From an uncultured Clostridia bacterium (GTDB lineage Bacteria; Bacillota; Clostridia; Lachnospirales; Anaerotignaceae): a DNA stretch of 64,000 nt. The translations under genes and the position numbers were made by a program. Below the pieces are notes generated by a model. That model searched no databases. It saw only the letters and a program-made list of their open reading frames with translations, and was not told the origin of the DNA. Of this stretch, positions 8,356-13,182 are shown piece by piece (within the stretch, counting starts at the first letter, position 1; every line of letters starts with the position of its first letter). The DNA lies in contig CALWGC010000022.1 in assembly GCA_944378105.1 (NCBI GenBank), forward strand, positions 96,944 through 160,943, read 5' to 3'.

Positions 8356-9438
8356 TTATTGTGCAGCCTTCACTTTGATCCAAAGTTCTGCCAATTTTTG
8401 TTTCAACACTTCGTTGTCTTTGAAGATTTCGTCTTTTTCATAGCCGTCTCTTGGCAAATAAGCTTCGTTGTCGGCATAATAACCGCCTTCGCCGGTCATG
8501 GCATCCAACACTTCCTGGTTACTGGAAGCATAGCCTACATATTCGCTGTTGCCATAAGAAGCGTCATAGGTCAATACATAGTTGATAAATTCATGGGCTA
8601 ATTCTGGGTTTTCTGCATTGGCCGGAATCACCATGGCGTCGCTCCAAAGGTTGGTGCCTTCCATTGGCATAAAGAAGCCCATGTCTGGGTTTTCATCCAA
8701 AATCACCGCTGCATCACCGCTATATACCACGGCCAGGCTCTTGGTGCCGCTCATCATATTGTCAATGACTTCGTCGGTTACATAGGTTGGTTCCATGGTG
8801 TCGTTCAGTTCTTGCAGCCATTCATAAGCAGCCTGGATTTCTGCTTCGTCTTCGGTGTTCATGGAGTAGCCCAATGCTTTAAAGGCCATCATAAAGGAGT
8901 CGCGTTCCGAGTCATAGATATACACATCGCCTTTGTAATCGGTATTTTTCAAAATGTTCCAGCCCTGTTCTTCCAACAGTTCCAAAGGCACATTGTTCTT
9001 GTTGTATACAATGCCTACACTGCCCCAGAAATAAGGCACAGAATATTGATTGCCTGGATCATAATCCAAGTTGGTCAGGTTTTCGGCCAGATTGGACAAG
9101 TTTGGAATCTTGCTGTGATCCAATTCCATCAACATATCTTCTGCCATCAACCGTTCAATCATATAGTCGGAAGGTACCAAAACGTCGTAAGCATCGCCTG
9201 CTTGCAGTTTGGTATACATCATTTCGTTGGAATCGAAATATTCCACGATCACTTTGACACCAAATTCGTCTTCGAAGTCGGAAATTAGGTTTTCACCCAT
9301 GTATTCCCCCCAGTTATACAGCTTTAACGTATCAGAGCTGTATTTGCTTTCTGCTTCGCTTCCGCTTTCCGAAGAACTGCTGCTGCAACCGCTCAACACC
9401 AGTGCAGCCCCCAACATCAATGCAAAAATTCTTTTCAT
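8356..9438 (-). CDS. potD: Spermidine/putrescine ABC transporter substrate-binding lipoprotein
   Basis: 360 aa. Lipobox LSGC. Sequence resembles the PotD family. It is the last gene of a potA-B-C-D arrangement with overlapping stops and starts. Confidence 0.85.
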   Translation of the reverse strand: MKRIFALMLGAALVLSGCSSSSSESGSEAESKYSSDTLKLYNWGEYMGENLISDFEDEFGVKVIVEYFDSNEMMYTKLQAGDAYDVLVPSDYMIERLMAEDMLMELDHSKIPNLSNLAENLTNLDYDPGNQYSVPYFWGSVGIVYNKNNVPLELLEEQGWNILKNTDYKGDVYIYDSERDSFMMAFKALGYSMNTEDEAEIQAAYEWLQELNDTMEPTYVTDEVIDNMMSGTKSLAVVYSGDAAVILDENPDMGFFMPMEGTNLWSDAMVIPANAENPELAHEFINYVLTYDASYGNSEYVGYASSNQEVLDAMTGEGGYYADNEAYLPRDGYEKDEIFKDNEVLKQKLAELWIKVKAAQ

Positions 9439-10229
9439 TTCACCCTTTTCCTTTCTTTTAACATTGGAATAATATTGATCAGCAGCAATACCACCGTAAT
9501 GAGCAAAATCACAATGGTGGAAAGCGCGTTGATCGACGGATTGACCCGTTTACTCATGGTGTAAACGAGAATGGAAATGTTGCTGACCCCGTTACCAGTC
9601 ACAAAATAAGAGATGATAAAGTCGTCAAAACTCATGGTAAAGGCAATCAGCGCCCCGGAAATAATGCCCGGCATAATCTGCGGTACAATCACCTTTAAAA
9701 GCGCCTGCCAAGGGGTGGCCCCCAGGTCCATACAGGCGTCGGCCAAGTTGGGATCAAGGCTACGCAATTTCGGCGATACGCTTAACATCACATAAGGCGT
9801 ACAAAACATAATGTGGGCCAGCACCATGGTCAAAAACCCTTTTTTCACCCCAAGGGCACTGAAAAACATCAAAAGCCCAATGGCCGTCACAATTTCTGGG
9901 TTCATAATGGGCAAATCGTTGATGTGCTCCACCGTCGCCTTTAAAATTTTGTTGCTTTTGGAAAGGCCAATGGCCGAAATGGTGCCCACAATGGTGGAAA
10001 CCACCGTTGCAATCAAAGCCACGGCAATGGTATAGAAAACGGCATCCATCATGTCGTTACTGGAAAACATTTTTTCGTACCATTGCAGCGAAAACCCGTT
10101 TAAATGGGTCAAGGATCGGTTTCCGTTGAAGGAAAACACAATGATATACAGGATGGGAGCATAGAAAAAAGCAAATAAAACGGCCATCCAAATCTTGGAA
10201 AAAATCCGTGGTTTTTCTTTCATGCTCAC
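9435..10229 (-). CDS. potC: Spermidine/putrescine ABC transporter permease
   Basis: 264 aa polytopic protein with the ABC permease EAA-like loop (DLGATPWQALLKVIVP). Shows 4-nt overlaps with both neighbours. Confidence 0.85.
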   Translation of the reverse strand: MSMKEKPRIFSKIWMAVLFAFFYAPILYIIVFSFNGNRSLTHLNGFSLQWYEKMFSSNDMMDAVFYTIAVALIATVVSTIVGTISAIGLSKSNKILKATVEHINDLPIMNPEIVTAIGLLMFFSALGVKKGFLTMVLAHIMFCTPYVMLSVSPKLRSLDPNLADACMDLGATPWQALLKVIVPQIMPGIISGALIAFTMSFDDFIISYFVTGNGVSNISILVYTMSKRVNPSINALSTIVILLITVVLLLINIIPMLKERKRVK

Positions 10230-11059
10230 ACCCCTCTCTCATCCACATTGCGGTCTACTTTTTTGGTGATATACATGGAAATCATGATAATCACTGCCAT
10301 AATCATGGAAATGGCCGAACCAAAGTTCCAGTTGCCGCTGGTCAAAAACTGGCTTTCGATGACGTTACCGATGAGCACAAACTGGCCGCCACCCAGAAGC
10401 TTTGGAATAAAGAAACTGGATACGGCCGGCAAAAATACCAGCGTAATGCCGCTGATGACACCAGGCATCGATAGCGGCAGCGTCACCCGCAAAAACCGCT
10501 GCACCCGGTCGGCCCCCAAGTCGTTGGCCGCTTCCAACAGGCTTTTATCCATTTTCGTTAACGATGTATGAATCTGCAAAATCATGAATGGTAAAAAGTT
10601 ATATACCATCCCCAGCACCACTGCAAAGGACGTGTGGAGCATTTTGATGGGTTCTAAGCCAAACAGGCCCAAAAAGCTATTGATGATCCCATCGTCTTGC
10701 AAAATCCCCATCCAGGCATAGGTGCGCACCAACATGTTAATCCAGGTGGGAATGGTGACCAAAAGCACCAAGCGCATATGCCAGTTGGGACGGGCATTGG
10801 CAATGAAGTAAGCCGTGGGATAGCCCAGCAATATACAGACGATGGTGGTCAAAATGGCAATCCATAAACTGCGTTTGAGCACATCCAAAAAGATGGCATC
10901 GCTAAAAAAGTAAGCAAAGTTTTCCAGCGTAAATCGGAATGTGGTGACGTCGTTTCCCTTCTGGGTGAAGGCATACATCACAATCATCAACATGGGCACC
11001 ACAATCATAATACCAATCCACACCAGATAGGGATAGAGCATGGTTTTAAAATGACGCAT
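10226..11059 (-). CDS. potB: Spermidine/putrescine ABC transporter permease
   Basis: 277 aa polytopic protein with the EAA-like loop (EAANDLGADRVQRFLRVTLP). Confidence 0.85.
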   Translation of the reverse strand: MRHFKTMLYPYLVWIGIMIVVPMLMIVMYAFTQKGNDVTTFRFTLENFAYFFSDAIFLDVLKRSLWIAILTTIVCILLGYPTAYFIANARPNWHMRLVLLVTIPTWINMLVRTYAWMGILQDDGIINSFLGLFGLEPIKMLHTSFAVVLGMVYNFLPFMILQIHTSLTKMDKSLLEAANDLGADRVQRFLRVTLPLSMPGVISGITLVFLPAVSSFFIPKLLGGGQFVLIGNVIESQFLTSGNWNFGSAISMIMAVIIMISMYITKKVDRNVDERGV

Positions 11060-12630
11060 CAGTATCCCCCTTTGCTCATGATGTGAATATCTTCTGGCGT
11101 AAAGGCAAGGCCCACTTCTTCTCCTTCTTGATATTCGTCGGTGGTATCCACTTTATAGACATAGCCTTGGGTTTTGAATGTGACATCATAATCGCCCACG
11201 GTGATATTTTCTGGATCAAAGTCATATTCCACATCGGTGATTTCCACCGCCGAGTCGTCCACCAAGCTCCAGGCCGAAGCATTGGCCCAAGTTTTCAAGT
11301 CTGTTTCCAGGGCAATACTTTCGTTGATTTCGTCCACTTTCTTAAAGAAGTTTACGGCATAAATTTCTTCCTGGTACTCGTTGCTGACAATGCGGTTTTC
11401 TTCCCGCACAATCATGTTGGCTGTGGCTTTGGTGCCTTGGGCCGTGGAGAAAACAACGGGATAGACGCCGTTTTTCGGTTCGATATGGTATTCCACTTTG
11501 CTGATGGAAATCAGGCTATCGGTATCCGGGTTCCAGGCCTGGGCGTCGGCCCGGGCGATGATGTCGGCATCGGTCAGCTCTTCCACGTCACTGATGTCCA
11601 AATAGAAATCATTGGCGCTCATCTTTTCGTTGGCCGCCGTGTTGAAGGTTGGGCGGTCTTCGGAAACGTGCATTTTTACGGTGATGCTGGTGCCGGCTCT
11701 CGTTTCCACCATGGTTTCATAATGGACGCCTTTAAAAAGCACCGATTTCACCACGCCTTTAAGCAACCCTTTTTCCTTTGGCACAATGTCCAAGTCCTCC
11801 GGACGGATGACCACGTCTACTTTTTCGTTTTCGCCAAAGCCGCTATCCACACAAACAAAACGCTTATCTTCAAAAATCACTTCTTTGTCCTTCACCATCA
11901 CGCCGTCGATGATGTTGCTTTCGCCAATGAAGTTGGCCACAAAACGGTTGACCGGTTCGTTATAAATATCCGTCGGGGTCCCAATTTGCTGGATTTCGCC
12001 GTCGTTCATAACCACAATCTTATCGCTCATAGTCAAGGCTTCTTCCTGGTCATGGGTAACATAGATAAACGTAATCCCCACTTCTTTTTGGATTTTCTTT
12101 AACTCGTGCTGCATTTCTTTACGCAGTTTCAAGTCCAAGGCTCCCAAAGGCTCGTCCAAAAGCAGCACCATGGGCTCGTTGACCAAGGCCCGGGCGATGG
12201 CCACCCGCTGTTGCTGGCCGCCGCTCATTTCGGTGACGCTTCGCTTGGCGTAGTCTTCCAAATTCACCAGCTTCAGCATACGTTTTACTTTCTGTTCGAT
12301 GATGTCCTTGGGTTCTTTCTTGATTTTCAGCCCAAAAGCCACATTGTCGTATACATTCATATGGGGAAAGAGGGCATATTTTTGAAACACCGTGTTGATT
12401 TCCCGTTTATAAGGCGGAAGATTGCTGATTTCCTCTCCGTCAAACAGCACCTCGCCTTGATTGGGGCTTAAAAACCCGCCCAAAATCCGCAACAATGTCG
12501 TCTTGCCGCAGCCGGAAGGGCCCAGCAGCGTCACAAATTCATTTTCATAAATATCCAAATTGATGCCTTTGAGCACCAGCTGTCCGTCAAATTCTTTGAC
12601 GATGTTTTTAAACTGAATCAGCTTTTTCAT
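11059..12630 (-). CDS. potA: Spermidine/putrescine ABC transporter ATPase carrying a ~175-aa insertion in the C-terminal regulatory (TOBE-like) domain
   Basis: 523 aa. Walker [10 protein letters not shown], signature MSGGQQQR, Walker B LLLDEP. The C-terminal end [16 protein letters not shown] is PotA-like. Residues ~314-488 have no counterpart in ~370-385-aa PotA proteins as I recall them. Confidence 0.9.
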
Positions 12631-12645: not shown

Positions 12646-13182
12646 TTAAAATAATGGCGGTGTTGATACCCAAATGAGTTTTGCCGTTGTTTTTTTGTCA
12701 TTGCGGAGAAAATGGAAATTTTTCCCGTGCAGATAAAAGGTCTCCCCTTTTTTCACCACATACTGCTTTTCCCCGTCATGCAGTGTCACCCTTCCCTCCA
12801 GCACAAAGCCAAACTCCTCTCCATCGTGGGGGGCCACTTCAAAGGTGTTTTGTCCCGGCAAAAGCTCGATTAACATCGGCTCCATTTCGTTCTTTTGGGA
12901 ATTGGGCACAATCCAATGGATGGTATATTCTTCTTTTTCGTCCACAAAAAAGTCGTCCTTTTCAAAGACCACCTTTTCGTCCTTGTCTTCCCGGAAAAAT
13001 TCCGAAAGACTGGTGCCCAGCGCCTCCAAAATGTCGTTGAGGGTGGCAATGGAAGGGGATGTGAGATTTCTCTCCAGCTGAGAAAGAAAGCCTTTGGTCA
13101 GCTCGCAGCGGCTGGCCAGCTCTTCCAAGGTCAAGTCCTTCTGGCTGCGCAATTGTTTGATTTTTGCTCCGATATCCAACAA
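12646..13182 (-). CDS. XRE-family HTH regulator with a C-terminal cupin domain (PuuR-like)
   Basis: 178 aa. N-terminal HTH is IKQLRSQKDLTLEELASRCELTKGFLSQLERN. The C-terminal part is a cupin-like beta-barrel. Lies 15 nt upstream of potA on the same strand. Confidence 0.8.
   Translation of the reverse strand: MLDIGAKIKQLRSQKDLTLEELASRCELTKGFLSQLERNLTSPSIATLNDILEALGTSLSEFFREDKDEKVVFEKDDFFVDEKEEYTIHWIVPNSQKNEMEPMLIELLPGQNTFEVAPHDGEEFGFVLEGRVTLHDGEKQYVVKKGETFYLHGKNFHFLRNDKKTTAKLIWVSTPPLF

Follow-up and report, generated by a model that had tools for sequence, protein, structure and literature searches.

A stretch of 64,000 nucleotides from an uncultured Clostridia bacterium of the family Anaerotignaceae (assembly GCA_944378105.1, contig CALWGC010000022.1, positions 96,944 to 160,943), which will be referred to as the window, carries the potA gene encoding the ATPase subunit of a spermidine/putrescine ATP-binding cassette (ABC) importer (11059..12630, minus strand, stop codon included; 523 amino acids). 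The protein contains, inside its C-terminal TOBE regulatory domain, an insert of 177 amino acids (about residues 311-487; 11170..11700, minus strand) that represents two periods of an ~85-residue repeat of surface proteins. We conclude that an ancestor of a Lachnospirales clade (Anaerotignaceae and relatives) gained, once and in frame, a two-period slice of this repeat, and we are highly confident of the identity of the insert and of the manner of its origin. The best explanation of the findings as a whole, a surface-repeat slice in PotA acting as an enlarged polyanionic sensor, has in our estimate an even chance of being correct.

Position and structure of the insert

In at least 25 further families of the order, canonical PotA orthologues comprise 341-365 amino acids, confirming the impression of the original prediction that a PotA of 523 residues is longer than usual. 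Their C-terminal hairpin reads '...FKGVHYEMLIE(4-5 aa)WKVHSTVMSPVG..VGI..PDLIHIMKK'. The insert was delimited by an excision scan, in which 1600 virtual deletions of the window PotA were scored against a hidden Markov model (HMM) of 28 canonical C-terminal domains. The best virtual excision removed 177 residues, starting at residue 309-313 and ending at residue 485-489, and yielded 96.4 bits, compared to at least 102.6 bits obtained for the canonical domains on their own HMM. Based on this best-scoring excision, the insert is ~177 residues long and, as judged from the sequence, is seated at the turn of a TOBE beta-hairpin. Downstream of the insert, the canonical consensus (aromatic-x-W-K-V-H-S-T, five residues, G-x-x-V-G) is found with identical spacing in the window PotA, and the Pfam domain TOBE_2 (PF08402; 43.1 bits, cut-off 21) is split into two stretches, with residues 273-324 covering profile positions 1-52 of 76. 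The split domain and the excision scan together bear out the earlier placement of the insert inside the TOBE-like domain, and the boundaries given at that time (~175 residues at 11167-11691, corresponding to residues 314-488) essentially agree with those of the scan. An alternative boundary, with two complete repeat units inserted, was rejected, as the respective excisions scored lower and every top excision retained the segment YVYKVDTT.

The nucleotide-binding domain (NBD) comprises residues 1-240 (11911..12630, minus strand), with Pfam ABC_tran matching residues 20-162 (E=7e-39). The N-terminal part of the TOBE domain (residues 241-310; 11701..11910, minus strand) ends in the native first hairpin strand HYETMVET, and the C-terminal part (residues 488-523; 11062..11169, minus strand) contains the native second hairpin strand YVYKVDTT followed by the last TOBE strands EEVGLAF and IHIM.

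The original prediction had described two related repeats of ~50 residues within the insert. The two quoted segments (residues 356-396 and 444-487) are indeed related, with 41% identity over 49 residues (BLASTP, E=2e-8), but the true unit, according to a repeat HMM derived from 61 giant surface proteins (528 units), is ~85 residues long. Repeat unit 1 (residues 328-412; 11395..11649, minus strand) is complete and matches HMM positions 1-85 with 89.2 bits (E=9e-30). Repeat unit 2 (residues 413-487; 11170..11394, minus strand) is present without its own last strand and is both more divergent and more acidic; residues 415-489 match HMM positions 2-71 with 45.7 bits (E=3e-16), and the unit holds a long near-invariant stretch with small insertions relative to the surface-repeat consensus. 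Ahead of the two units lies a donor-derived last strand with a linker (residues 311-327; 11650..11700, minus strand), where HMM positions 63-84 ('YpvtFttakgtsvtvkvtVtde') match PotA residues 304-325 with 8 bits. Since these three HMM matches fall in register, the inserted slice starts at about profile position 72 of a unit and ends at position 71 of the second unit after it, which is exactly two periods. The consensus of the repeat in the surface proteins reads 'E.I.AN.F....V......I..A.A.AW....G..V..T..D......G.Y.VTF.T..GT..TV...V.D'. Searching the insert and its halves against Pfam returned nothing at E<=10 except for a chance match to Ribophorin_II, and no match was obtained in NCBIfam at E<=0.01. 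A PDB search aligned one segment of the insert to the E. coli loop 'NEDDPDFDHSLDQKMAIN'; this assignment was discarded, as the repeat motif 'NE..ISANDF' explains the segment better.

The full-length AlphaFold2 model reached a predicted local distance difference test score (pLDDT) of 82 overall and of 80-92 across the insert, with 84-92 for repeat unit 1, and a predicted template modelling score (pTM) of 0.46; a model of the insert only reached a pLDDT of 79. All strands expected for the TOBE fold were predicted in the single-chain model, in agreement with preservation of this fold, a point that the original prediction had proposed to examine. Superposition of the model on E. coli PotA using Foldseek resulted in a template modelling score (TM) of 0.77 and a root mean square deviation of 2.7 A, the insert region aside, and a Foldseek search with the full-length model returned ABC ATPases alone. 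Each repeat unit is predicted to fold as beta-beta-alpha-alpha-beta-beta-beta-beta. Strands 304-311 and 315-323 are predicted to form a tight hairpin with a three-residue turn, and strands 479-487 and 490-496 a second hairpin. In this arrangement the donor strand TSITVKMHV would take the place of the native strand in the TOBE sheet by pairing with HYETMVET, and the displaced native strand YVYKVDTT would complete repeat unit 2 following its penultimate strand. The predicted secondary structure together with the phasing of the sequence thus suggests, at the level of topology, an in-phase, strand-exchanging insertion by which both folds are kept intact. The resulting PotA would carry two extra beta-rich, Big_3-like domains jutting from each regulatory domain into the cytoplasm.

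Origin and distribution of the insert

When the insert only was used as query against 1.84 billion representative proteins, 229 matches were obtained. The top matches other than PotA were giant proteins of 1000-6700 residues, in which as many as 28 stretches per protein matched at 27-37% identity; overall, the PotA insert is 30-43% identical to the surface-protein repeats, and many of the alignments begin at PotA residues 303-316. Among the 150 matches listed, all those other than PotA are repeat proteins, most of them with a signal peptide and/or a C-terminal LPXTG or transmembrane anchor, and no cytoplasmic-looking carrier of the repeat besides PotA was found among them. The giant repeat proteins also bear L-type lectin, Flg_new, InlK_D3, SdrD_B, Bact_surface_Ig-like and Gram_pos_anchor domains; examples are P0122 (3795 residues, 34 units) and P0130 (1684 residues, LPXTG). 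The expectation of the original prediction that such repeats are normally extracellular was thereby substantiated, the relatives being secreted or cell-wall-anchored giant proteins. PotA itself, unlike these carriers, is a cytoplasmic ATPase subunit without signal peptide.

Several further observations were made on the surface proteins. Their ~85-residue repeat arrays reach 34 units, in proteins of up to 6713 residues, for which Pfam gives spurious summed matches to SulA, MpPF1 and UDP-g_GGTase; a dedicated family model for the repeat appears to be missing from Pfam and NCBIfam. The LPXTG protein P0130 adjoins a second giant surface protein of the SpaA/CarboxypepD_reg type (at least 1978 residues; L098, 8271-11055), downstream of a two-component system, and this region looks like a surface-adhesin locus in a possible donor type of organism. 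In four database entries (P0131, P0132, P0141 and P0143), unrelated N-termini, resembling an ABC-F-like ATPase, an arabinofuranosidase-like enzyme or a lipoprotein signal, are fused to the C-terminus of an insert-bearing PotA; they probably stem from chimeric metagenome contigs or gene calls and do not represent real architectures.

A likeness of the repeats to Big_3 and DUF5011-type domains had been suggested originally. The PotA units showed no match to Big_3 (PF07523) or to PF16403 at E<=10, and the likeness is supported as a remote relationship at most. Among 60 surface units scanned singly against Pfam, Big_3 (four units, best E=1.5e-4) and Bact_surface_Ig-like (PF16403; three units, best E=7e-5) were the commonest matches. 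The top PDB sequence match of the repeat profile was the Big_3 domain 2kpn (E=0.015), and an hhalign comparison of the repeat alignment to five PF16403/Big_3 segments covered 44 columns with 70.7% probability (E=3.8e-5). When the two-unit model was submitted to Foldseek, the matches were weak throughout (best E=7.5e-3), led by S-layer SlpX domain II, ZmpB INT domains and tandem Rib domains; the list includes RibR (TM 0.44) and, again weakly, 2kpn (prob 0.97, E=0.029, target-normalised TM 0.48). Because four independent weak signals agree (single Pfam units, PDB profile, hhalign and Foldseek), we read the repeat as a divergent, un-modelled branch of the Big_3/DUF5011-like immunoglobulin (Ig) superfamily, not as a member of either Pfam family.

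The insert-bearing architecture was detected in 1535 protein clusters (90% identity), nearly all of 519-530 residues, and in 179 species genomes, most of which are labelled Anaerotignum, Neoanaerotignum, Anaerotignaceae, Tyzzerella or 'Clostridia bacterium'. Isolates carrying it are Clostridium sp. ASF356 (complete genome), Anaerotignum lactatifermentans DSM 14214 and A. propionicum. Within the family of the window, 106 of 113 genomes and 21 of 23 genera possess the insert, with one copy per genome except for G044 and every copy within an open frame of PotA length. Within the order, it is limited to this family and to family f13 (53 of 301 genomes). A class sample of 400 genomes, from whose scoring G485 and G735 were left out due to too many candidates, possibly giant repeat proteins, yielded one further carrier from another order (G539, family f35; 49% identity). 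The variant is thus common within one clade, as far as the original prediction had considered that it might be a known and common form of PotA; neither a curated model nor a description of an insert-bearing PotA was found in the databases and the literature searched. A donor within the same genome was considered and rejected, as in the window genome and its family the repeat occurs once per genome and always in PotA.

Some genomes deviate from this pattern. G044 holds two identical insert-bearing potA copies on one contig (C1:393757-394299 and C1:547530-548072), which reflect either a recently duplicated pot locus or a repeat generated during assembly. Members of the family of the window without the insert include G039, G109, G092 and G023. 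G039 (L090, genus g4) has a canonical-type potA with 67% identity and the same upstream regulator, and in G109, G092 and G023 more distant paralogues alone (45-55% identity) were present; the insert-less genomes are either a basal lineage predating the insertion or the result of later replacement.

A maximum-likelihood tree was calculated on the non-insert part of PotA from 33 insert-bearing and 30 canonical orthologues together with outgroups. One branch (length 1.03, support 99/100) parts the 33 insert-bearing proteins from the 30 canonical ones; a 31st insert-less sequence (L091) is a distant paralogue and groups with the outgroups. This pattern fits a single acquisition. The PotA proteins of f13 and of the out-of-order genome G539 (L099-L105) nest inside the diversity of the window's own family, and the whole potABCD operon may have been transferred laterally to f13 and to the f35 genome at a later time. 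The direction of transfer, from a surface protein to PotA, is deduced from the broad and diverse occurrence of the repeat in surface proteins compared to its narrow and uniform occurrence in PotA.

Conservation was evaluated across 92 orthologues. The length of the insert is 177.0 ± 0.5 residues (range 175-179), and its ratio of nonsynonymous to synonymous differences (pN/pS), 0.23, is close to that of the TOBE residues around it (0.20) and higher than that of the NBD (0.11); the synonymous sites are almost saturated (pS about 0.8). Invariant columns include ARA.A.AW in unit 1 and AVN..K.D..ES...T.LKTWANA in unit 2, and between species the PotA units share about 73% identity, compared to ~34% mean column identity for surface units. 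These data bear on the explanation that the insert is a tolerated passenger or an artefact, that is, a neutral recombination remnant, a mobile or intein-like element or an assembly chimera, which we regard as extremely improbable. A surface hairpin turn can tolerate insertions, and the insert shows a slightly raised content of guanine and cytosine (GC), 0.51-0.52 in the coding DNA at 11300-11750 of the window versus 0.45-0.48 in the flanking potA and potB. Since the insert is old, recent transfer is disfavoured as the cause, and this rise is probably better explained by amino-acid composition. Against a passenger stand the low pN/pS, the fixed length and the many invariant columns, because of which chimera, recent mobile element and neutral passenger can be excluded, as well as retention in nearly the whole family and in a second one. 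The reading frame is unbroken and free of stops, profile searches gave no intein or transposase features, and isolate genomes, at least one of them complete, carry the insert; an assembly error, for which the original prediction had recommended a check, was excluded by the number of clusters and species genomes, isolates included.

Operon context, acidity and proposed function

The window PotA scored 573.3 bits with the NCBIfam PotA equivalog NF043075 (cut-off 550) and 391.4 bits with TIGR01187 potA (cut-off 355.6), and 436 bits with the E. coli-type model NF006987, under the cut-off of 482. In a PDB sequence search with the full-length protein, ABC ATPases alone were returned, with E. coli PotA (8zx1) aligning to residues 3-340 (E=1e-96). 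The insert-bearing protein is the sole PotA orthologue in the 2.04-Mb genome. Straight downstream of potA follow potB (10226-11059), potC (9435-10229) and potD (8356-9438), all on the minus strand, as open reading frames that overlap or abut; the N-terminus of PotD resembles a lipoprotein signal. This gene order is kept in all insert-bearing loci examined. As judged by family score and operon context, the window protein is a true PotA, for which transport and ATPase activity are predicted. Directly upstream of potA (12646..13182, minus strand), a protein of 178 residues with an XRE-type helix-turn-helix and a cupin domain is encoded, a PuuR-like architecture judging from the sequence, which is likely a polyamine-responsive repressor of the pot operon. 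The regulator is 52-75% identical beside canonical and insert-bearing potA in several Lachnospirales families, and is absent upstream of potA in family f13, G539 and L006.

The insert is strongly acidic. Its net charge is -21 (residues 311-487) or -22 (residues 313-489), corresponding to -12.4 per 100 residues, and for unit 2 (residues 413-500) the value is -17 per 100 residues; the mean per 100 residues is -5.9 ± 4.0 for the homologous surface units and -5.0 for the C-domains of canonical PotA. The charge is retained in the 92 orthologues (-21.8 ± 2.9, range -26 to -15), in which 22 insert columns are at least 90% acidic versus 6 basic ones. For E. coli, a cryo-EM study (Sci Adv 2024) reported that spermidine lowers the ATPase activity of PotABC, and the authors propose that polyamines bind to the 'extensively negatively charged' PotA regulatory domain and lock an inhibited state; the regulatory domains rotate by about 15 degrees through the transport cycle (PMC11414716).

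The insert would roughly triple the negative charge of an already acidic regulatory domain. We suggest that it could serve as an enlarged polycation-sensing (trans-inhibition) module, tuning or sharpening the feedback on polyamine uptake, and that it may double as a docking surface for a cytoplasmic partner. The proposal is derived from the fixed length, the conserved charge of about -22 and the spermidine binding proposed for the E. coli regulatory domain; we place the regulatory mechanism as such, with the insert as an enlarged polyanionic sensor, at or somewhat below an even chance. The more specific scenario, in which an extracellular adhesin or stalk repeat was exapted into a polyanionic two-domain cytoplasmic sensor that, across a large group of gut anaerobes, gates uptake by binding polyamines or a partner dependent on them, is put forward tentatively, as it may well be wrong.

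Several points weigh against this interpretation. The acidity, though pronounced, falls short of extreme: it lies near the 5th percentile of all 177-residue windows in this genome region, and it could result from general adaptation or from ancestry, the surface repeats being acidic themselves. Many of the invariant residues of the insert are hydrophobic and core-like and hence uninformative with respect to a ligand. The spermidine-binding model for E. coli is itself a proposal (PMC11414716), and the sensor role put forward for the insert-bearing PotA is predicted from sequence. As to the structure, the strand exchange is deduced from topology rather than from coordinates, and, with a pTM of 0.46, the placement of the insert relative to the NBD dimer is highly uncertain.

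The main rival to the sensor interpretation, which we consider less likely than not, is a partner-docking platform: the Ig-like domains would recruit a specific protein of the cytoplasm, for instance a regulator or an enzyme of polyamine metabolism, and couple transport to expression or metabolism. Ig-like repeats are typical protein-binding modules, and the MalK regulatory domain binds MalT and EIIA-Glc. The long near-invariant stretch of unit 2 with its small insertions, and the much higher identity of PotA units across species than of surface units, would suggest a specific interface. The gene of the PuuR-like regulator lies directly upstream; however, this regulator is found equally beside insert-less potA (L087-L090) and is missing beside insert-bearing potA in the three cases named above, so that gene-context comparison ruled it out as an insert-specific partner, and no further gene was observed whose presence tracks that of the insert. 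A structural role only, as a rigid spacer or clamp between the PotA protomers that stabilises the dimer or sets the geometry of NBD closure, appears improbable. The repeats form stalk-like tandem arrays in surface proteins, the constant length would suit a geometric constraint, and an appendage on a domain rotating by about 15 degrees could modulate the kinetics (PMC11414716). Nevertheless, canonical PotA manages without the module in at least 25 sister families, a purely mechanical part leaves the conserved strong negative charge unexplained, and the orientation of the domains is predicted with low confidence, as reflected by the pTM. The polyanionic sensor remains the interpretation we prefer.

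Relation to known systems

The insert-bearing PotA leaves the definition of PotA unchanged and is a case of domain exaptation and of ABC-importer regulation. It represents a natural domain insertion in which host and guest folds would each lend a strand to the other, and thus a possible natural template for engineered insertions in beta-hairpins; furthermore, a member of an extracellular repeat family would have moved into the cytoplasm, which is believed to be rare. To our knowledge, the sensing of cytoplasmic polyamines by PotA is unsettled even in E. coli, and a lineage with a roughly tripled acidic surface offers an amplified version of this problem together with a simple deletion control. 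In the guts of humans and animals, where polyamines are plentiful and of importance to the host, the clade (Anaerotignum, Neoanaerotignum, Tyzzerella-like bacteria and ASF356) is common, and its cultured members allow direct testing. For the ~85-residue repeat, a new family model could be built.

The window PotA shares with E. coli PotA (8Y5F/8ZX1) the ABC-type NBD, the acidic C-terminal regulatory domain of the TOBE type and the potABCD operon, with about 49% identity over ~318 columns in the Foldseek structural alignment (TM 0.77). E. coli PotA, with 378 residues, differs in that its second hairpin strand is followed by no more than a short acidic loop (NEDDPDFDHSLDQK), whereas the window PotA carries 177 residues, that is, two extra domains, at the hairpin turn instead. 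The canonical PotA proteins of sister Lachnospirales families (L106-L135) are closer, with 61-67% identity over residues 1-310, the same operon and often the same regulator, but at 341-365 residues they are without the insert.

With the repeat of the giant surface proteins, the PotA copies share clear homology, an equal unit length and the predicted secondary structure. The surface proteins are secreted or anchored and contain 10-34 tandem units as well as accessory lectin, Flg_new, InlK_D3, SdrD_B and PF16403 domains, whereas the PotA copies are cytoplasmic, number exactly two, are embedded in another domain and are much more conserved and more acidic. Big_3, PF16403 and Rib domains have in common with the repeat the pattern A-x-A/D ... 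G-x-Y-x-V-T-F/Y-x-T ... V-x-V; in contrast to them, the first strands of the PotA-type unit are separated by two short helices.

Accessory modules are known from other ABC importer ATPases, such as the C2 domain of MetN and the regulatory module of ModC, which mediate trans-inhibition by the substrate, and the tandem CBS domains of OpuA and OpuC. MalK, MetN, ModC, OpuA and OpuC likewise possess extra cytoplasmic modules that gate transport upon sensing a substrate, effector or partner, and the tandem CBS domains of OpuA and OpuC provide a two-module parallel to the PotA insert. However, the modules of these ATPases are C-terminal extensions with cytoplasmic folds, whereas the module of the window PotA is situated inside the TOBE fold and is derived from an extracellular repeat family.

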